Below, in pieces: positions 12,667 to 43,575 of a DNA stretch of 64,000 bases. A program made the position numbers and the translations under genes. Source of the stretch: Armatimonadota bacterium (GTDB taxonomy: Bacteria > Armatimonadota > SYMT01); NCBI GenBank assembly GCA_041690135.1, contig JAWLHY010000008.1, positions 32,001-96,000 of the forward strand, read 5' to 3'. Every line of letters starts with the position of its first letter. The stretch's first letter is position 1. Below the pieces are notes generated by a model. That model saw only the letters and a program-made list of their open reading frames with translations, searched no databases and was not told the origin of the DNA.

Positions 12667-13311
12667 ATGGAAGCGACGTCCGCACAGACGCTGCCCCGGC
12701 TGAACGAGCCGGCTCCCGATTTCAGCGCTACCAGCACCCAGGGCCCGATTTCACTGTCCCAGTACAAGGGAAAGTGGATCGTGCTCTTCTCGCACCCGGC
12801 CGACTTCACCCCGGTCTGTACCACCGAGTTCATCGAGTTCGCCCGCAACTACGAAGAGTTCGAGAAGCGCAATGTCCAGCTGATCGGTCTCAGCATCGAT
12901 AGCATCTACGCCCACATCGCGTGGGTCCGCAACATCGAACAGAACTTCGGCGTCGACATCAAGTTCCCGGTCATCGCCGACCTGGACATGAAAGTCGCCC
13001 AGCTCTACGGCATGATCCACCCGGGCGCGGCCAGCACCGCTACCGTCCGTTGCGTCTTCATCATCGATGACAAGGGCATCGTCCGTGCGATGGTCTACTA
13101 CCCGCTGACCAATGGGCGCAACATCGACGAGATCATTCGCCTGATCGACGCGCTGCAGACCCACGAGGCGCAGAAGGTCGCCACCCCCGCCAACTGGCGG
13201 CCCGGCGACAAGGTCATCGTCCCGCCGCCGCTGACCCAGGAAGGCGCCGAGGAGCGCTGCAAGGCCGACTACGAGATCACGGACTGGTACTTCGCCAAGA
13301 AGCAGATCTAG
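12667..13311 (+). CDS. peroxiredoxin (Prx6-type)
   Basis: FSHPADFTPVCTTEF, GRNIDEI and TPANW motifs. Confidence 0.95.
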   Translation: MEATSAQTLPRLNEPAPDFSATSTQGPISLSQYKGKWIVLFSHPADFTPVCTTEFIEFARNYEEFEKRNVQLIGLSIDSIYAHIAWVRNIEQNFGVDIKFPVIADLDMKVAQLYGMIHPGAASTATVRCVFIIDDKGIVRAMVYYPLTNGRNIDEIIRLIDALQTHEAQKVATPANWRPGDKVIVPPPLTQEGAEERCKADYEITDWYFAKKQI

Positions 13312-14543: not shown

Positions 14544-15272
14544 GTGAGTTTTACCCTCGTTCAGCTATCCGCACTGGTTTTCCCCGTTCTCGCAGTGCTT
14601 TTTCTCCGCGCTCGATCGGCCGACCGTACCCACGCGCCTCTCGCATGGTCGGCGTATGCCCTGGGCGCGGTGACCCTGATCCCCGCCGCCTGGCTCGGCC
14701 TCCGTGCTGACGCGACCGTGCGCCTTGTGGATGACCACTACCTCCGCGGCCTGGCGGAGGCTTTCCTCAGTGCCGCGCTCCCGGAGCAACTCGTACGATT
14801 CCTCGTGGTCTGGTGGTTCTGCGAACGGGCGAAGGTCGCCGGCAAACGGATCGACCCGGTAGTGTGCGGCGCCTCCGCGGCGCTGGGCTTTGCAATGGTG
14901 GAAGGGTGGCTACACCCGATCGAAGATGATCAGTTAGGTGCACTTATAGGCGCCGGGGTCGCCATGGCCAGCCATGGCTTCGACGGTATGATCCTGGGCT
15001 ACTTTGTCCGCCGGGCTCTCGATGACCCCGAGCGCAAGCCGCAGTTCCTCGCACTGGCACTGGTCGTGCCCCTTACCCTGCACACGCTGTACGACTTCAC
15101 GCTGATGACCGAGATCCCAGCCCATCCGGCCCAAGCCGCAGCCGGAACCTCCCCCGCGGCGATGCTGCTGACCGGGCTTTCGCTCGGAATCCTGATGATG
15201 GAAGCCGTTTGGGCCATCCACCTCCTGGGCACCCTCCGCCATCCTCAGCCGGGTCCTGCATTGCGTCAGTGA
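14544..15272 (+). CDS. PrsW family intramembrane protease-like protein
   Basis: multi-TM; AALPEQ (EE degenerate), ALGFAMVE, SHG and LHTLYDF motifs. Confidence 0.75.
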   Translation: MSFTLVQLSALVFPVLAVLFLRARSADRTHAPLAWSAYALGAVTLIPAAWLGLRADATVRLVDDHYLRGLAEAFLSAALPEQLVRFLVVWWFCERAKVAGKRIDPVVCGASAALGFAMVEGWLHPIEDDQLGALIGAGVAMASHGFDGMILGYFVRRALDDPERKPQFLALALVVPLTLHTLYDFTLMTEIPAHPAQAAAGTSPAAMLLTGLSLGILMMEAVWAIHLLGTLRHPQPGPALRQ

Positions 15273-15481
15273 CGGTAGTGGGGCCGACCTACCGCAAAGT
15301 AGACGAGGGCCCCGACGCAGTTCAAGAAAAGAATGACCAGCACCCAGATGAGCTTGGTTCCCGCGCGATAGTAACGGTCTTCCGGAACGCGGATGGCATC
15401 CACCAGTGCCGCCAGCGTGATAATCCAGGGGATCAACCCGGCGCCGATCAAGAGCAACTCAGCAGGACCCAGCTCGAACAT
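15266..15481 (-). CDS. small membrane protein with PLDc N-terminal-like domain
   Basis: ALVDAIR...KLIWVLVILFLNCVGALVYF pattern. Confidence 0.75.
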   Translation of the reverse strand: MFELGPAELLLIGAGLIPWIITLAALVDAIRVPEDRYYRAGTKLIWVLVILFLNCVGALVYFAVGRPHYRH

Positions 15482-15598
15482 GCGAAAGAACCCTCTCATG
15501 GGATGTGGTCACCCCGAAGTGGCGCCATTCCACTTAACGGTGTATGTTGCCTCTGGTTGCGCCTCGGTCACCGCACCGCAGGGGAAGTGAGTTCCTTG

Positions 15599-16051
15599 CT
15601 ATGAGTTTTTCACCCCTCCCATCTCCAAGCCAGCCGCGAAGCCGCGGAGAAAGGCTCGGCTCGTCTCCTTTTCGACACCGGGGACGCGCACCAGAACGCT
15701 TTCGATCGGCACTCCCTGCGTGAGGAGGTATGCGGCGTAGACCGTACCGGCCCGCCCTCCGCCGCCCATTCAGTGGATGAGCACAGCCGGGTCCAATTCG
15801 GAGCGGCGCCGGATGAGGTCCAGGGTGGCGCCCAACCCCTCGGGCAGTGGGGAAGCAAAGTCGCGGATGAGGAACGGGTGCCACTCGATGCCGCGCTCCT
15901 CCATCCGCGCCTGGACTTCCGGGCTGACCGGATGCAGCGAGACGACGGCGCGGATGCCCTGATCGTGCAGCCAGTCGACCGTCTCCGGGGTCTCGGGGAC
16001 CCCGGAGAGCGCGACGCGGCCTTCTTCTTCGAAGCGGAAGTTCTTTACCAT
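15599..16051 (-). CDS. putative selenocysteine-containing dual-specificity/protein-tyrosine phosphatase (150 aa, Sec94)
   Basis: the 93-aa ORF stops at VLIH-TGA (15770-15772); the same frame continues MGGGGRAGTVYAAYLL... for 56 codons to TAG at 15599, giving H-U-X5-R; GIRAVVSL and IRDF acid loop present; ATG abuts the upstream TAA. Confidence 0.85.
15730..15769 (-). promoter_or_regulatory. candidate bacterial SECIS element
   Basis: after UGA: AUGGGCGGCGGAGGGC-GGGCC-GGUAC-GGUCU-ACGCCGCAU; the apical loop starts with G, 21 nt after the UGA. Confidence 0.6.
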
Positions 16052-17014
16052 TTAAGGACGGATGCCGGGGACATTGAGCTTGATGCGGTAGAGCCCGGAG
16101 CGGGCGGTCATGTAGAGGGTTTTGCCATCGGCATCGCCCCAATGGCAATTGGCGGGCACTTCCTCGGGGCGGATCAGGCCGAGGTACTTGCCGGTAGGGC
16201 TGAGGACCCACACCCCGCCAGGGCCGGTGCCGTAGACGTTCCCTTCCTTATCGACCTTCATTCCATCCGGTAGGCCGTCTTGCTTGCTCTGGGTGACATC
16301 GTAAAAGACCTTACCCGCGCCCAGAGTGCCGTCGGCCTTCACCGGGTAGGACATCCAGATCTTGCGGGCGGCGTCGGAATTGGCCACGTAGAGCGTCTTC
16401 TCGTCCGGTGAGAAGGCCAGACCGTTCGGGCGGGTAAGCTCTTTCGTGAGGAGGGTCAGCTTACCGTCCTTGTACCGGTAGACGCCGTTGAAGGGGAGCT
16501 CCTTGGCCGGATCCTGGTCCTGCTTCGGCAGGCCGTAGGGAGGATCGGTGAAGTACATCGCCCCGTCGGACTTGAAGATGACGTCGTTCGGGCTGTTCAG
16601 CCGCTTGCCTTCGTAGCGGTCCACGATCGTGACGTAGGACCCGTCCTTCTCCCGTCGGGAGACGCGCCGTCCGGAGTGCTCGCAGCAGATGAGGCGACCC
16701 TGGGGGTCCAGCGTGTTGCCGTTCGTGTTCTGGGAAGGGTTTCGGAAGTCGGAGACCTTGCCGGCTTTCGGGTCCCACTTGCGAAGGACGTTGTTCGGGA
16801 TGTCGCTGAAGACAAGGAATCCCTCGTGCATCCAGACGGGGCCTTCCGTGAACTTGAAGCCTCCGGCCAGTTTCTCGATCTTCGCTCCTTCCGGAACGAT
16901 CTTCTTGAACTCGGGTGCGTTGAGGTCGATTCCTTCGCCGGAGGCGCCCTCCACCAGGGGGGCGCAGAGGCAGGCGGCAGTCAAGCTAAGACAAAGGAGT
17001 GCGTTGTGCTTCAT
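16052..17014 (-). CDS. SMP-30/gluconolactonase family secreted protein
   Basis: signal peptide; FTEGPVW, FSDIP, LNSPND, FTDPPYG, PNGLAFSPD and PDGMKVD motifs. Confidence 0.92.
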   Translation of the reverse strand: MKHNALLCLSLTAACLCAPLVEGASGEGIDLNAPEFKKIVPEGAKIEKLAGGFKFTEGPVWMHEGFLVFSDIPNNVLRKWDPKAGKVSDFRNPSQNTNGNTLDPQGRLICCEHSGRRVSRREKDGSYVTIVDRYEGKRLNSPNDVIFKSDGAMYFTDPPYGLPKQDQDPAKELPFNGVYRYKDGKLTLLTKELTRPNGLAFSPDEKTLYVANSDAARKIWMSYPVKADGTLGAGKVFYDVTQSKQDGLPDGMKVDKEGNVYGTGPGGVWVLSPTGKYLGLIRPEEVPANCHWGDADGKTLYMTARSGLYRIKLNVPGIRP

Positions 17015-17213: not shown

Positions 17214-17726
17214 TCAGGCTGCGATCGCCTCGGAGTAATGGTGGAGGCCGACGGGGTGGGCACGGTGCATCGCCAACTCTGCCCGTCCGAACTCGCCGTC
17301 GGTGTGGACGAAGACCAGGGTGCGCCCCTCTTTGAGCTCCCGATTGTATTCCTCCGCGGCCCGGCGCGGGAGTCCGAGCCCCACCAGAACTCCCGCAAAC
17401 CCTCCCACCGAGGCTCCCCCAACCGCACCCACCATGGCTGCTGCGAGCGGCCCTGCGGCTATCACGATGCCAGCGCCGGGCAGTGTCAGTGCTGTGAGGC
17501 CGGCCACCCATCCAGCCACGCCGCCGAGGATTCCACCCGCGGCCACGCCCGTGGCTCCTCCCTTGATAACATTCACCCCCAGTTCCTCGGCGTAGTTCTC
17601 GGCTTCGCGAGGGTCCGGGGCGAAGATGCTGATGTTGCGGGACGTGAAACCCGCTTCACGCAGGTTCTCCACCGCCTGCACGGCCTTGCCATGCGAATCG
17701 AAGACTCCTACCACCGTCTGTGCCAT
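17214..17726 (-). CDS. general stress protein 17M-like membrane protein
   Basis: TVVGVFD..A..AV..L...GF, Gly-zipper helices and GLGLP..AEEY..LKEG..LV. Confidence 0.75.
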   Translation of the reverse strand: MAQTVVGVFDSHGKAVQAVENLREAGFTSRNISIFAPDPREAENYAEELGVNVIKGGATGVAAGGILGGVAGWVAGLTALTLPGAGIVIAAGPLAAAMVGAVGGASVGGFAGVLVGLGLPRRAAEEYNRELKEGRTLVFVHTDGEFGRAELAMHRAHPVGLHHYSEAIAA

Positions 17727-17921: not shown

Positions 17922-18509
17922 CTACTTCAGGGCCTGGGCAGCGGGGCTCAGGAGCACGTAGAGGATGGGAATGGCGGCTCCGAGGAGGACCAGGATTCCG
18001 CCGCGGCCGGCGAGGCCGTTCTTGCCCGGCAGCATGAACATCCCGGAGAGAGCCAGGAACAACAGTCCGATCGCGTAGAGATCGGCGACGACCGTCCAGG
18101 CCTTCTTGCCCCGGTTCAGGTGGAGCCAGTTCGCGGCCCGGAAGAAGGGTCGCGGCTTCTGGCCTTCTTCCACGACACGCCCAGACTCGGGGTTCACCGT
18201 GAGGGTGCGGTTCTCCATCTGAATCCGGAGCTCGTCCGGGGCGTAGCGTTCCACCTGCTTCGGCGCACCTTCGATGCGAAGTTGGTTCAGCACCTCGCGC
18301 GCGGCGTTGGCGTCGTCCGGCGGCAGGGTACCCTGGAGCGTGTGGGTTTGGCGATAGCGGACGAAGTTGGAGTCCCAGTCCGCGACGTGGTTTACCGCCA
18401 GACCGGAGAGGGCATAGACCACAGTGAGACCCACGGCAAGGTAACCACAGTCTCGATGCAAGGAGCGGACCAGCGGACGCCAGCTCACACGGCGGCGCTG
18501 TTCAGGCAT
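17922..18509 (-). CDS. PepSY-associated TM helix protein
   Basis: RSLHRDCGY..YALSGLAVNH, NWLHLN and WTVVAD motifs. Confidence 0.8.
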   Translation of the reverse strand: MPEQRRRVSWRPLVRSLHRDCGYLAVGLTVVYALSGLAVNHVADWDSNFVRYRQTHTLQGTLPPDDANAAREVLNQLRIEGAPKQVERYAPDELRIQMENRTLTVNPESGRVVEEGQKPRPFFRAANWLHLNRGKKAWTVVADLYAIGLLFLALSGMFMLPGKNGLAGRGGILVLLGAAIPILYVLLSPAAQALK

Positions 18510-19245
18510 ACCGCTCCTCCAGCCAGGGGTCCGCATGGTTGTGATACCCGCGCACTTCCCAGTAGCCCGGTTCGTCGTGGCTCACGAAGCGGATGCCGGT
18601 AAGCCACTTCGCACTCTTCCAGAAGTAGAGGTCCGGAACGAGGGAGCGCACTGGGGGACCGTTCTCTAGGGGCAGCGGTTCACCGTTCAGGCGGTAAGCG
18701 ACGAGGCAATTGGGGGCGATGGCTTCTTTCAGCGGCACGTTGGCCGTGTAGCCGTGCGCGGCCTCGAAGATCACGTGGGCCGCGGAATCTTTCACGCCGG
18801 CCAACTCCGCCAGGTGGGCGATCCGCACGCCCTTCCACTCCGCATCGAAAACGGTCCATCCCGTCACGCAGTGAACGTCGGCCAGTTGCTCTGTTTGCGG
18901 GAGTGCCAGCAACTCGCGGTAATCGAGCTCCAGAGGGTTCCGCACTTCTCCGTAGACGCGCAGGCGGAAGTTGGCGGGATCAGGATCACCCTGTTGGCCG
19001 CCCATCGGGCGCAGCGCCTCGATCAGGCGTTGATTCGGGGGAAGCCGGGTTCGGCCGTCCGCACGAACCGCATCCAGGGCGGCCTGCTGCTTCTCCGGGG
19101 CCGCCGGGCGATAGAGGATGCCGCCAATTGCTACCACCGCACCTGCCGCGGCCAGGCCCAATATCGCACGCCGATCCATTCGCCGGCCGGCGGGGTGTTC
19201 CGCGGGAAGTTGTTCTGGCGGTCTCTGCTCGTCGTGTCCGCGCAT
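18502..19245 (-). CDS. sulfite oxidase-like molybdopterin-dependent oxidoreductase
   Basis: RLPPNQ, DVHCVTGW, GYTANVPL, NGPPVR, YFWKSAKW and GYWEVRGYH motifs; RR-containing leader. Confidence 0.9.
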   Translation of the reverse strand: MRGHDEQRPPEQLPAEHPAGRRMDRRAILGLAAAGAVVAIGGILYRPAAPEKQQAALDAVRADGRTRLPPNQRLIEALRPMGGQQGDPDPANFRLRVYGEVRNPLELDYRELLALPQTEQLADVHCVTGWTVFDAEWKGVRIAHLAELAGVKDSAAHVIFEAAHGYTANVPLKEAIAPNCLVAYRLNGEPLPLENGPPVRSLVPDLYFWKSAKWLTGIRFVSHDEPGYWEVRGYHNHADPWLEERYA

Positions 19246-19297: not shown

Positions 19298-21229
19298 ATG
19301 CCTCCTGTGAGCCCCAAACTTTCCACCGTCAGCCAGCACTTCATCATCGGTACCGCGGGTCACGTGGACCATGGTAAGACGGCCCTCATCCGCGCGCTAA
19401 CCGGCGCCGAAACCGACCGCCTCCGGGAAGAACAGGAGCGGGGAATGTCCATCGACCTGGGTTTCGCCGACTTCAAGCTGCCCAGTGGTCGTCACGCGGG
19501 CGTGATCGATGTGCCCGGTCACGAGCGGTTCCTCAAGAACATGCTGGCGGGAGCCGGCGGCATCGACCTGGTGCTACTGGTGATCGCCGCGGACGAAGGG
19601 GTGATGCCGCAGACGCGGGAGCACCTCGACATCCTGAACATCCTGCAGACGCGCCGGGGCGTGGTGGCTATCACGAAGGCGGATCTGGTGGATGAGGAAT
19701 GGCTGGAGCTGGTTCAGGAAGATATCCGCGGGGTTCTCAAGGGCACTTTCCTGGCTCACGCGCCGATGGTCCCGGTTTCCTCCATCACCGGCGCCGGGAT
19801 CAGCGACCTGCGGAATCTGCTGGACCAGATGGCGGAAGACGTGCCGACCCGCACTATCGTGGGGCCGTGGCGGCTGCCGATCGACCGGGTATTTACCATC
19901 CGCGGCTTCGGCACGGTGGTGACCGGGACGCTGATTGCCGGCGTGGCCCGCGTGGGGGATCGGGTGGAAGTCCTGCCGCGGCGAGTGGAGAGCCGCATCC
20001 GCAGCTTGCAGGTGCACGGGGCATCGGTCGACTTCGCCGAGGCGGGCACGCGGGTTGCCGTGAACCTGGCCGGCCTGGAGGTCGAGGACATCGAGCGCGG
20101 CGATGTCGCTTCCCCGCCGGGGGTGTACACCGCCACCCAGGCGCTGGATGCGCGGCTTGACGTGCTGGAGAGCTGCCCGCGCGAGGTGCGAAACCGGACG
20201 CGCGTGCGCGTCTATCTGGGGACGGCGGAAGTTCTCGCCCGCCTCAACCTGCTGGACGCCGAGGTTCTGGAGCCGGGCCAGAGCGGCCTGGTGCAACTCC
20301 GGCTGGAAACCCCTACTGTGGCCGCCAAGGGCGACCGCTACGTGCTGCGGTTCTACTCGCCGATGGACACCATCGGCGGGGGAACGATCATTGATCCCAG
20401 CCCGGTGCGCCACAAGCGGTTCGATGCGGCCGTTCTCGCCAACATGGCGGTGAAGGAGAAGGGTACACCCGAGGAGTTGGTGGCGGAGACGGTTCAGCGC
20501 TCCAATCTCACCCCGATCGCCCCCCAGGCCATCGGGCAGGCGCTGGGCATGCCGCTGGAAGAGGTGCGGAGGCTGGTCGGGGAACTGAAAGAGCAGGGCG
20601 AACTGGTGGGGCTGGAGGGAGAGACGGTGGTCCACCGCCACCGGCTGGACGCGGCGGGCCACCAGGTGGTGAGCACCCTCTCCGAGTATCATGCCGCGCA
20701 ACCCATGCGGACCGGAATGAGCCGCGAAGAGCTGCGCAGCCGCCTATCCCGGCAGATGGACGCCAAGGGGTTCAACCTGATCCTGGGCCGGCTGGAAGCG
20801 GAAGGCAAGATCGTGTCCGAAGGGGGGCGCGTCCGGCTCGCCAGCCACAGCCCGCAGTTCACCCCCGAACAGCAGCGGATCGCGGAGGCCTTCGAGCAGG
20901 GCCTGCTCGCCGATCCGTTCAATGCCCCGTTCTACGAGGATCTCCGGTCCGCTGCCGGCCTCCCCGCGAAGCCGGCGCAGGAAGTGTGGGAAGCCCTGAT
21001 CGACAACGGCCTCGTGGTCCGCATCACTGCGGATGTGTTCCTTCACCGGAAGGCGGTGGACCAGGCCATCGCACGCGTTCGCGAGTACCTGGCCGAGAAC
21101 AAGACGATCACCGCGGCCCAGTTCCGCGACCTGCTGGGCACCTCCCGTAAGTACGCCGTACCCCTGATGGAGTACCTCGATGCGCAGCGGGTGACGCGGC
21201 GACTAGGAGACGCAAGGGAGCTGTTCTAG
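19298..21229 (+). CDS. selB: selenocysteine-specific translation elongation factor
   Basis: [51 protein letters not shown]; C-terminal winged helix [13 protein letters not shown]. Confidence 0.96.
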
Positions 21230-43077: not shown

Positions 43078-43575
43078 TCAATCTCCGTTCAGTTCTCTAT
43101 CCTTTAACCGCTTCAGGGCGTCGACCTGGCAGGTTTGTTCGGGGCCTGACCCTGCTTTCCGGACAAGAATCGTCGCGGTACCGAAATCGACTCCCAGAGC
43201 CAGGAGCACGCCAATCGCAAAAGTACCCGTGCGGCCGATGCCCGCTCCGCAATGGACCAGAAGGGAGTCTCCCTCGCGCAGCGCGGTGGCGGCCCGGCGA
43301 GTCATCCGGGCGAAGGCGTCGTCCGGGGGAGCCCCGAAGTCCGGGATGGGCAAACTCCAGATCTCACAGGGGCATTCGCCGGCCTCGAGTGCCGTCGCGT
43401 AGCCTGGGGACGTTTTCCGGACTTCGGTATCCGGGGCGAGGCAGACGATCGTGCGAATACCGAGGCGGTGGACTTGCTCCCAGCTCTCCTCCAGCGGATC
43501 GTAACGTCCGGGCATGCTGTGCAGATAGAGTTGCCCGGTCACCCCGTCCGACAGTTTCACCTGTCGAAATTCCAT
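43078..43575 (-). CDS. dual-specificity/protein-tyrosine phosphatase (Cys form)
   Basis: GIRTIVCL, PIPDFGAP, LVHCGAGIGRTG and PEQTCQ motifs. Confidence 0.92.
   Translation of the reverse strand: MEFRQVKLSDGVTGQLYLHSMPGRYDPLEESWEQVHRLGIRTIVCLAPDTEVRKTSPGYATALEAGECPCEIWSLPIPDFGAPPDDAFARMTRRAATALREGDSLLVHCGAGIGRTGTFAIGVLLALGVDFGTATILVRKAGSGPEQTCQVDALKRLKDRELNGD

Follow-up and report, generated by a model that had tools for sequence, protein, structure and literature searches.

Does the in-frame UGA at the predicted catalytic position of a small phosphatase-like gene in an uncultured soil bacterium end the protein, or is it read as selenocysteine (Sec), and what chemistry would a Sec-containing product perform? 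The gene lies in the 64,000-nt stretch of DNA analysed here (hereafter the window), in which an earlier note, made from the sequence alone, had proposed a hidden selenoprotein of the CX5R phosphatase type.

Reading frame and conservation of the UGA codon

The phosphatase gene occupies positions 15599–16051 of the minus strand and comprises 150 codons followed by a TAG stop (15599–15601); gene callers divide it into two open reading frames of 93 and 56 aa. The hidden frame running through a single TGA was found as the earlier note had claimed, with 93 codons, the last of them encoding VLIH, before the TGA and 56 codons (MGGGGRAGTVYAAYLLTQG...) between it and the TAG, and with an ATG (16049–16051) that directly abuts the TAA of the upstream gene on the same strand (16052–16054). 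Also as described there, the TGA (15770–15772, minus strand), aligned with TGA and Cys codons of relatives, falls exactly on the nucleophile of the HCX5R P-loop, whose codons (15752–15775, minus strand) read His93-Sec94-Met-Gly-Gly-Gly-Gly-Arg100, the H-C-X5-R signature with U, the proposed Sec94, for C. The acid loop is intact, and Asp64 of its LIRDF segment (15860–15862, minus strand) is a candidate general acid by its conservation and its alignment with the PDF of DUSP23. Position 94 (C or U), G97 and R100 are invariant across 58 aligned relatives, and Asp64 is invariant in eight class orthologues, with conservation of 90% or more across 38 relatives.

The gene might instead involve no functional recoding, being a pseudogene with a nonsense mutation, the outcome of an assembly or base-calling error, or a deliberate truncation to 93 aa. 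Public gene calls all stop at codon 94, the phosphatase genes seen among them being shortened to ~93 aa and labelled "hypothetical protein", and the base call at 15770–15772 rests on the assembly, with no independent read contig across it. Four runs of public reads, with at most 0.13 of words in each, yielded 13 short contig pieces, none of which bridges 15770–15772, and a metatranscriptome contig of a ~90% similar relative spans 15778–15987 and ends short of the TGA; these read-search contigs speak neither to the correctness of the base call nor to whether the gene is expressed. Truncation would, judging from the structural model, sever the P-loop from the rest of the fold.

The comparative evidence bears more directly on this alternative. 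A TGA at codon 94 is found in seven distinct DNA sequences from separate assemblies, namely the window's genome, a genome from another family of the same class (G007) and five distinct metagenome contigs, and is thus not unique to this assembly. The protein identity of these forms to the window's protein is 53–69%, and all carry an intact, constrained frame after the TGA, with the same hairpin (described below) and a natural stop reached at 142–150 aa. An orthologue is present in all eight class genomes, with TGC or TGT at codon 94 in six of them, so that relatives with an aligned TGA or Cys codon, for which the earlier note had proposed a search, do exist. The metagenome scan gave 10 loci, of which six have the TGA (two, L045 and L046, being the same sequence), two end before the site, one (L048) loses the phosphatase frame near residue 55 and one (L050) is an unrelated weak match; the loss of frame in L048 indicates that decay does occur in the family. 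A single-protein scan of genome contigs returned just three loci, two of them already in the set. Across 401 sampled genomes of the phylum, the combination of TGA and hairpin was limited to the window's genome and G007, and viral contigs gave no match to it.

Protein databases show the same pattern from the other side. Among the 48 non-self matches to the N-terminal 93 aa, 37 end at the His before the site, nine are full-length with HC and two are fragments, while a second library contributed four further truncated clusters and two C-terminal pieces; all three truncated database entries for which the DNA could be identified carry a TGA. A tree of the family implies at least three switches between Sec and Cys, most parsimoniously six, where 36 of the 43 rows counted as Sec are inferred from truncated gene calls rather than from a stop codon read in DNA. 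Judged from the aligned sequences, the TGA of the phosphatase gene is conserved more than chance would produce.

The sequence past the TGA is conserved as well, which was another expectation of the earlier note. Over 21 pairs, pN is 0.34 against a pS of 0.66 downstream of the TGA, compared with 0.29 against 0.58 upstream, and by this measure purifying selection acts on the frame past the TGA. Four of the seven TGA forms have CTG, CAG or GCG rather than ATG as the next codon, and the tail is therefore incapable of an independent start. Nowhere else in the gene are synonymous sites as conserved as just behind the TGA: over codons +1 to +13, the Sec forms have a synonymous divergence of 0.25 versus 0.62 in the Cys forms, identical residues are encoded by identical codons in 170 of 227 cases versus 707 of 1425 elsewhere, and codons +5 to +9 are identical in 7/7 TGA forms and different in 6/6 Cys forms. 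Set against the persistence of the same TGA, frame and hairpin in seven sequences, the reading of the gene as a pseudogene, an error or a truncation is very improbable and close to refuted.

Hairpin and selenocysteine machinery

Shortly after the UGA lies a SECIS-like hairpin, GGCGGGCCG-GUA-CGGUC-UA-CGCC (15734–15756, minus strand; +14 to +36 after the UGA), identified as an RNAalifold consensus. Its stem of nine pairs has a 2-nt bulge on the 3' side and is capped by an apical GUA (15745–15747), and the whole overlaps codons Gly98 to Ala105. The hairpin forms in 7/7 Sec forms and 0/6 Cys forms, is near-invariant and conserved at synonymous sites, and is paired in 60 of 63 cells across the TGA forms; its 14-nt core occurs once in the window versus 0.03 expected. 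The SECIS anticipated by the earlier note has a conserved candidate counterpart after the UGA in every TGA form, but one with no compensatory changes: among the seven TGA forms no pair has changed on both sides, and six of the nine pairs never vary. Its folding energy is no better than that of shuffles (z 0.15) or of the Cys forms' own folds, and an Rfam search with the hairpin gave nothing near any threshold. We count the lack of compensatory changes, the unremarkable energy and the missing Rfam match against Sec decoding. Post-UGA hairpins with G-N-N triloop caps, one of them a GUA loop, are also found in the genome's own SelD gene and in four thioredoxin-fold TGA genes. A genome-wide scan for a TGA followed by a stem capped G-GU[AG]-C returned 110 matches and recovered both selD and the phosphatase gene; 14 other matches were translated and resembled wrong-frame noise, the genome having 65% GC, and the scan was abandoned.

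The machinery for Sec decoding is present. The Sec-specific elongation factor gene selB (643 aa; 19298–21229, plus strand) lies ~3.2 kb away, as the earlier note had stated, with Pfam matches to GTP_EFTU, Beta-barrel_SelB, SelB-wing_2 and SelB-wing_3 and a TIGR00475 match of 383.6 bits, over the cut-off. Elsewhere in the window's genome we located the remaining components whose presence that note had left to be confirmed, selA (566.6 bits), selD (369.6 bits) and selC, the gene for tRNA-Sec (67.2 bits). The selD gene itself contains a TGA, and in-frame TGA codons also occur in FdhA and in 9 of 43 AhpC/TSA-type matches of this genome. selA is present in 8/8 class genomes. In G007, which is 88% complete, the tRNA-Sec search gave no match and selB was matched in part only, which we count against Sec decoding. 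A reassigned genetic code was rejected, since TGA serves as an ordinary stop in the window's genome, ending 1107 of the 2572 open frames that span 500 codons or more. The proximity of selB was set aside as a functional link because two class genomes (G003, G005) have selB and the phosphatase gene on different contigs; those contigs are short, and the separation there is not decisive.

Translation through the UGA could also occur with a residue other than Sec, by a near-cognate Cys or Trp tRNA or by Cys insertion via the Sec machinery under selenium scarcity, with the hairpin just stimulating read-through. The downstream frame is, on the sequence evidence, clearly translated, and sequence does not distinguish which residue is inserted; other systems are known in which Cys is inserted at Sec codons. 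Several observations speak against such read-through, which we regard as improbable. All components of the Sec machinery are encoded in the genome and serve other genes there, and the hairpin shares its place and its G-starting apical loop with the genome's other post-UGA hairpins. A one-base change from TGA to TGC would give Cys, as in six relatives, yet the TGA is kept in forms at 53–69% identity.

From the comparative sequence evidence we conclude that UGA codon 94 is very probably read as Sec and that the gene encodes a genuine selenoprotein. SelB and Sec-tRNA(Sec) would decode codon 94 as selenocysteine, recruited by the in-CDS hairpin at +14 to +36, whose stem would be made of the P-loop codons themselves.

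Fold, neighbourhood and candidate chemistry

The protein matches the Pfam families PTP-SAK (PF22784; 5.8e-15, 56.1 bits, cut-off 27) and Tc-R-P (PF22785; 4.2e-12, 47 bits, cut-off 27), while DSPc (PF00782) scores 23.4 bits, below its cut-off of 33.5; NCBIfam gave just one sub-threshold match, of 27.6 bits. The AlphaFold2 model has a mean pLDDT of 93.7 and a TM of 0.81 to DUSP23 (2img), and profile matches in the PDB are led by 25xa (5.9e-46) and DUSP23 (3.4e-37), with the DUF442 structure 3gxg a weaker relative (1.7e-11). By far the closest structures are true phosphatases, DUSP23 and Tk-PTP. In the model the protein adopts a DUSP23/VHZ-like fold that retains the Arg and the acid-loop Asp.

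If this fold is put to its usual use, the product would be a 150-aa cytoplasmic enzyme, an atypical dual-specificity phosphatase like DUSP23/VHZ and the archaeal PTPs, with a selenolate in place of the thiolate as the P-loop nucleophile. Arg100 and the P-loop amides would bind a phosphate monoester, Sec94 would attack the phosphorus while Asp64 protonates the leaving group, and the Se-phosphoryl enzyme intermediate would then be hydrolysed. The advantage of Sec may be that it is fully ionised, is a nucleophile that leaves more readily and resists irreversible oxidative inactivation, a proposal that has its basis in general selenium chemistry and in the classical weakness of Cys phosphatases to irreversible oxidation.

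Alternatively, the gene may encode a genuine selenoprotein that uses the phosphatase fold for redox or oxyanion chemistry rather than for phosphate-ester hydrolysis, an explanation that we hold to be possible and rather unlikely. Sec94 would then act as a reductant of arsenate, a peroxide or a disulfide, or as a carrier of sulfur or selenium, with an external thiol system regenerating it. Most known selenoproteins are redox enzymes, and Sec replaces Cys mainly there. Classical PTPs have Ser or Thr after the P-loop Arg, whereas Ala, rather than a hydroxyl residue, follows Arg100 in 7/7 Sec forms, as it also does in several Cys forms; the Ala of the Sec forms and the distant relationship to 3gxg are both consistent with redox use. 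The catalogue of prokaryotic selenoproteins published in 2026 (PMC13188914) includes an arsenate reductase and five rhodanese-like selenoprotein forms.

The protein itself argues in the opposite direction. Every Sec form seen retains Asp64, the candidate general acid that phosphoryl transfer to a leaving-group oxygen would call for, and the nearest structures are the true phosphatases named above. The window's protein contains no cysteine and the Sec forms have no second conserved Cys, and there is therefore no built-in resolving thiol. LMWPc, ArsC, rhodanese and BLH_phosphatase gave no Pfam match at E up to 0.1, and no ars genes were found among the neighbours scanned. An arsenate reductase of the LMW-PTP ArsC or Acr2/Cdc25-like type was rejected on these grounds of family match, cysteine content and neighbours. 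The DUF442/BLH_phosphatase sulfurtransferase-like domain was also rejected, since PF04273 has no match in the protein or anywhere in the genome and 3gxg is only a distant relative.

The neighbours scanned were SGL, YflT, PrsW, PLDc_N, a TIM-barrel protein and a peroxiredoxin (Prx). The gene directly upstream (16052–17014, minus strand) is SMP-30/gluconolactonase-like (Pfam SGL, 8.5e-48) with a signal-peptide-like N terminus; the junction of its TAA with the phosphatase ATG makes it a probable operon partner, and it holds the same position in 6/12 related loci. A 1-Cys peroxiredoxin gene (12667–13311, plus strand; Pfam AhpC-TSA and 1-cysPrx_C) is a recurrent neighbour that we treat as context only, and a 70–81% identical gene lies downstream on the opposite strand in 4/12 related loci, covering both families of the class. 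A YflT stress protein gene recurs near the phosphatase gene in 2/12 related loci in addition to the window. The proposed oxidation resistance of Sec fits this neighbourhood of stress and peroxide genes, and a redox role would fit it equally well.

Given Sec, true phosphatase chemistry rather than a redox or oxyanion activity is modestly probable. The explanation as a whole, an intact selenoprotein gene for a Sec-based DUSP23-like phosphatase acting by phosphoryl transfer, is in our judgement somewhat probable. To the fuller proposition of a natural hydrolytic selenoenzyme, in which a widespread soil-bacterial DUSP23-like family works through a phospho-selenocysteine intermediate, adopted Sec against oxidative stress, carries its SECIS within the P-loop codons and has exchanged Sec and Cys several times, we would give about an even chance.

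Comparison with known systems

The evidence points to a widespread Sec-dependent phosphatase family that is absent from the 2026 catalogue of 119 prokaryotic selenoprotein families as far as the catalogue apart from its supplementary tables extends (PMC13188914). A Sec-containing PTP or DSP was likewise not found in the literature searched, which includes PMC13188914, PMC2398784, PMC10298544 and PMC12013277 apart from supplementary tables, which might list one; the 26 mentions of "phosphatase" in the GOS paper concern a PP2C domain fused to peroxiredoxin. Within that scope, the earlier note's remark that no Sec example is characterised in this family agrees with the literature. No Pfam, NCBIfam or Rfam model flags the Sec forms of the phosphatase family, and because the family is absent from the 119-family catalogue, annotation pipelines and counts of soil-bacterial selenoproteomes would miss it.

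Known selenoproteins are nearly all oxidoreductases, and a PTP-superfamily hydrolase with a Sec nucleophile would, if true, add phosphoryl transfer to the reactions that selenium catalyses in nature. It would also offer a natural experiment on the choice of Sec over Cys: Sec and Cys versions occur in sister genomes with at least three switches, which makes the comparison directly testable. Cys-based phosphatases are the textbook example of inactivation by oxidation (PMC10298544).

Among catalogued selenoproteins with an oxyanion loop are arsenate reductase (TIGR00014), arsenate reductase-like (NF041106) and rhodanese-like forms 1–5 (PMC13188914, Table 1). These share with the proposed phosphatase a Sec in place of the nucleophilic Cys of a small oxyanion-binding or sulfur-transfer enzyme, but belong to other folds and families, are redox or transfer enzymes, and have no Pfam or NCBIfam match from the window's protein.

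The closest likeness in structure is to human DUSP23/VHZ (2img, 4erc) and to 25xa, a bacterial "dual specificity protein phosphatase family protein" in the PDB, which share the single-domain atypical DSP fold and a length of ~150 aa (Foldseek TM 0.81 and 0.80). The alignment runs from end to end and takes in the H-C/U-X5-R P-loop, the Asp of the DF acid loop and the C-terminal helices. The window's gene differs from both in having a UGA (Sec) rather than a Cys codon for the nucleophile and an RNA hairpin inside its P-loop codons, and its protein in having Ala rather than Thr after the Arg, at an identity of just 26–27%. The archaeal enzymes Tk-PTP (5z5a, 5z59) and SsoPTP (2i6i, 7mpc) have the same minimal PTP/DSP fold (TM 0.75–0.79; 22–34% identity; profile E 1e-26 to 1e-23) and are Cys enzymes; we know of no Sec form of the archaeal small PTPs.

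With respect to decoding, the textbook bacterial selenoprotein gene is E. coli fdhF, with its SECIS inside the open reading frame just 3' of the UGA. This gene and the SelD, FdhA and thioredoxin-fold genes of the window's own genome share with the phosphatase gene a UGA aligned to the Cys of homologues, a hairpin, here a candidate one, that starts 10–26 nt after the UGA and has a G-starting apical loop, and a decoding that depends on selA, selB, selC and selD, all present here. The phosphatase hairpin differs in being near-invariant rather than covarying across the seven forms, and no Rfam model matches it. The host protein differs too, being by its predicted fold a PTP-superfamily hydrolase, not an oxidoreductase.

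Gene product and conservation of the in-frame TGA

The minus-strand gene at 15599-16051 begins with an ATG (16049-16051) abutting the TAA of the gene upstream, proceeds through 93 codons ending in ...VLIH to an in-frame TGA (15770-15772), and reaches a TAG stop (15599-15601) after a further 56 codons. This arrangement, which gives a 150-residue protein if the TGA is read through, had been described in an earlier note together with the IRDF acid loop and a selB gene about 3.2 kb away (19298-21229), and every one of these elements is found in the sequence as described. The TGA falls on the nucleophile of a P-loop motif, H93-U94-M-G-G-G-G-R100, and Asp64 is located in LIRDF.

The read-through protein scored above the curated Pfam cut-off of 27 for both PTP-SAK (PF22784, 56.1 bits) and Tc-R-P (PF22785, 47 bits), and under the 33.5 cut-off for DSPc (PF00782, 23.4 bits). 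A profile of 58 relatives matched the PDB entry 25xa, annotated as "dual specificity protein phosphatase family protein" (5.9e-46), human DUSP23/VHZ (3.4e-37), and the archaeal Tk-PTP and SsoPTP (1e-27 to 1e-21). The AlphaFold2 model was confident (pLDDT 93.7, pTM 0.89) and superposes on DUSP23 at TM 0.81. Across the 58 aligned relatives the nucleophile, Gly97 and Arg100 do not vary, and Asp64 is invariant in all eight class orthologues, showing the predicted active site to be intact. No signal peptide was detected.

The genome harboring the gene (G000; 9.1 Mb, 25 contigs, 65% G+C) is one of just eight species genomes available for its class in the collection, all of which encode an orthologue. 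The catalytic codon is TGA in G000 and in G007, a genome from a different family, TGC in four of the remaining genomes and TGT in two. A scan of metagenome contigs yielded ten related loci, six of which present TGA at the catalytic codon with the P-loop and remaining protein in frame behind it; two others end before the catalytic site, and one (L050) proved unrelated. Counting the identical loci L045 and L046 once, there are seven distinct TGA forms across G000, G007 and metagenome contigs; the six besides the window's own are relatives with aligned TGA, as the earlier note had proposed to look for, and share 53-69% protein identity with it. In a further metagenome relative, L048 (237-658), the frame is lost near residue 55; the same sequence occurs as protein P0060, and either decay of this copy or an error in sequencing would explain it.

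The N-terminal 93 residues were also used to query 5.8 billion predicted proteins. Among the 48 non-self matches, 37 end exactly after the His, nine are full-length proteins with HCQGGGGR and two are fragments. A second protein library contributed four further, more diverged clusters, also cut short at the site, as well as two 55-57-aa pieces beginning at the Met after the TGA. Three cut-short entries exactly match the N-terminal part encoded on contigs seen as DNA, and all three have TGA there; in the other 36 Sec-type entries the TGA is deduced from the protein end. The few sequencing runs sharing window sequence were metagenomes of soil and rhizosphere, each holding just a small share of it, and none of the contigs examined from public runs spans the TGA of the window's own organism.

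From codon +14 after the TGA to the stop, the seven TGA forms show pN 0.34 and pS 0.66, against 0.29 and 0.58 in their N-terminal part, indicating that purifying selection on the protein continues behind the TGA. A pseudogene, a sequencing error or a truncation at the TGA is close to excluded. Only three of the seven forms have ATG directly behind the TGA (the others have CTG, CAG or GCG), so the tail cannot be an open reading frame with a start of its own. A reassigned genetic code was rejected, since TGA ends more of the long open frames in G000 than any other stop codon (1107 of 2572).

A hairpin after the UGA and the Sec machinery

All seven TGA forms share a near-invariant stretch after the UGA. 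Over codons +1 to +13, the Sec forms show a synonymous divergence of 0.25, compared with 0.62 for the Cys forms and about 0.6 across the rest of the Sec genes. Codons +5 to +9 (GGG CGG GCC GGT ACG) are the same in all seven, save for AGG encoding the Arg in one, whereas all six Cys forms encode the Arg by CGC or CGT, with the surrounding codons varying. RNAalifold predicts here a SECIS-like hairpin (15734-15756, minus strand; nucleotides +14 to +36), GGCGGGCCG-GUA-CGGUC-UA-CGCC, which comprises nine base pairs, a bulge of two bases and a GUA at its apex and is formed by the P-loop codons themselves (Gly98 to Ala105). The hairpin is found in 7/7 Sec forms and 0/6 Cys forms, with 60 of 63 cells paired across the Sec forms. 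The case for this hairpin is made by the conservation of silent sites. Against it, there are no compensatory changes among its pairs in the seven Sec forms, the fold of the single sequence does not exceed shuffled sequences in stability, folds of other shape but about equal stability are open to the Cys forms, and an Rfam search matched no family. The selD gene and four thioredoxin-fold genes of G000 carry 5-8-bp hairpins with G-N-N triloops (GUG, GGC, GUA, GUU, GGC) after their UGA, a local pattern that the phosphatase hairpin fits. By eye, FdhA shows a 7-bp stem with a GGUCU loop.

The selA, selD and tRNA-Sec genes that the earlier note expected elsewhere in the genome are clustered on G000 contig 1, with the clear tRNA-Sec at C1:1152265-1152359. 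A second match to the tRNA-Sec model (L007, C2:905114-905197, minus strand; 47.8 bits vs a gathering score of 47) could represent a different tRNA with a long arm, for example tRNA-Ser or tRNA-Leu. Within the class, selA is present in 8/8 genomes, tRNA-Sec in 7/8 and selB above its cut-off in 5/8; possession of the machinery therefore does not account for whether the phosphatase gene has Sec or Cys. The TGA-bearing G007 (88% complete) has selA, a selB matched over its first 264 positions only and below cut-off, and no tRNA-Sec found at E up to 1e-8, gaps likely due to incomplete assembly.

The selenoproteome of G000 is rich: in-frame TGA codons occur in FdhA (C3:653175-656255, plus strand) and SelD (C1:1150877-1151803, plus strand), one each, and in nine of 43 AhpC/TSA-type matches. 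Four of these nine sites show a W/Y-U-G-P/A-C thioredoxin-fold motif, and three look doubtful (C1:644182, C16:10138, C2:159381). G000 has five PTP-SAK-type genes, with TGA only in the one under study. A second PTP-SAK/DSP-type gene in the window (43171-43488, minus strand; C8:75171-75488) has no internal stop and is presumably a Cys-type paralogue.

A much less likely reading is that another tRNA, and not Sec-tRNA, reads through the UGA. The P-loop nucleophile is encoded by a conserved UGA that a conserved hairpin follows, the Sec machinery is present, and the Sec reading is strongly supported.

Predicted chemistry and genomic neighborhood

In the proposed mechanism, SelB would recognize the hairpin and direct Sec to the UGA. 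Arg100 and the P-loop would hold a phosphate monoester for attack by the selenolate, with Asp64 as putative general acid, and the Se-phospho enzyme would then be hydrolyzed. The likely pay-off of Sec would be a nucleophile spared from loss by over-oxidation. Cys phosphatases are described as sensitive to oxidation in PMC10298544.

An exported SMP-30/gluconolactonase-like gene (16052-17014, minus strand) abuts the phosphatase ATG and lies directly upstream in 6/12 related loci. A YflT stress-protein gene (17214-17726, minus strand) is upstream in 2/12, and a 1-Cys peroxiredoxin gene (12667-13311, plus strand) is downstream on the opposite strand in 4/12, covering both class families; several loci are too short to show neighbors. 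This neighborhood recurs in both families, at Sec as well as Cys loci, and may reflect plain synteny or a stress module, being consistent with a stress role. In the related loci examined, neither the PLDc_N-domain membrane protein directly downstream on the same strand (77 aa; 15266-15499, minus strand) nor the PrsW-family intramembrane protease (14544-15272, plus strand) is seen again. An MsrP/MsrQ-like pair (17922-19245, minus strand), situated between the phosphatase operon and selB, consists of an Oxidored_molyb molybdopterin oxidoreductase of 247 aa overlapping a 204-aa PepSY_TM-like membrane protein.

The main rival explanation retains Sec but assigns the enzyme to redox or oxyanion chemistry, with arsenate or peroxide as substrate or a part in sulfur or selenium transfer. 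The peroxiredoxin neighbor, the Ala directly after Arg100 in 7/7 Sec forms and the bias of known selenoproteins to redox speak for it, but the general acid is conserved, the protein contains no cysteine that could serve as a second one, no ArsC, LMWPc, rhodanese or DUF442 matches were obtained, and there is no ars context among the neighbors. Phosphatase chemistry is the favored prediction.

Distribution and relation to known selenoproteins

The phosphatase family is narrow: 1.84 billion representatives yielded 43 clusters with an E-value of 1e-10 or below. The TGA-plus-hairpin pattern was identified in two of 401 phylum genomes sampled (G000 and G007), and in none of the viral contigs searched. 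A tree of the N-terminal 93 residues, omitting six fragmentary rows and three duplicates, encompassed 65 rows, of which 22 were Cys and 43 Sec, the Sec rows being made up of 7 known from their DNA and 36 inferred. At least six Sec/Cys switches are needed on this tree and well-supported branches force at least three, the alignment being short and many forks open; label shuffles need a mean of 18.5, and none of 500 was as low. Clustered yet repeated exchange is known for other Sec/Cys families, and the phosphatase tree appears to follow the same pattern.

The earlier note knew of no characterized example in this family, in agreement with full-text literature searches, in which we found no natural Sec-containing PTP or DSP, although supplementary files might contain one. 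The text of a May 2026 review whose Table 1 lists 119 families of prokaryotic selenoproteins (PMC13188914) contains none of the terms "phosphatase", "tyrosine", "PTP", "hydrolase", "DUF442", "PF00782" or "PF22784", and "phosphatase" is absent from the main texts of deep-Sep (PMC12013277) and BSepDB (PMC13326102). The PMC13188914 list does include rhodanese-like forms and arsenate reductases. The enzyme class is one where Sec had no description in the searchable literature, and the gene studied here would add a new family of selenoproteins to a type of recoding that is already known.
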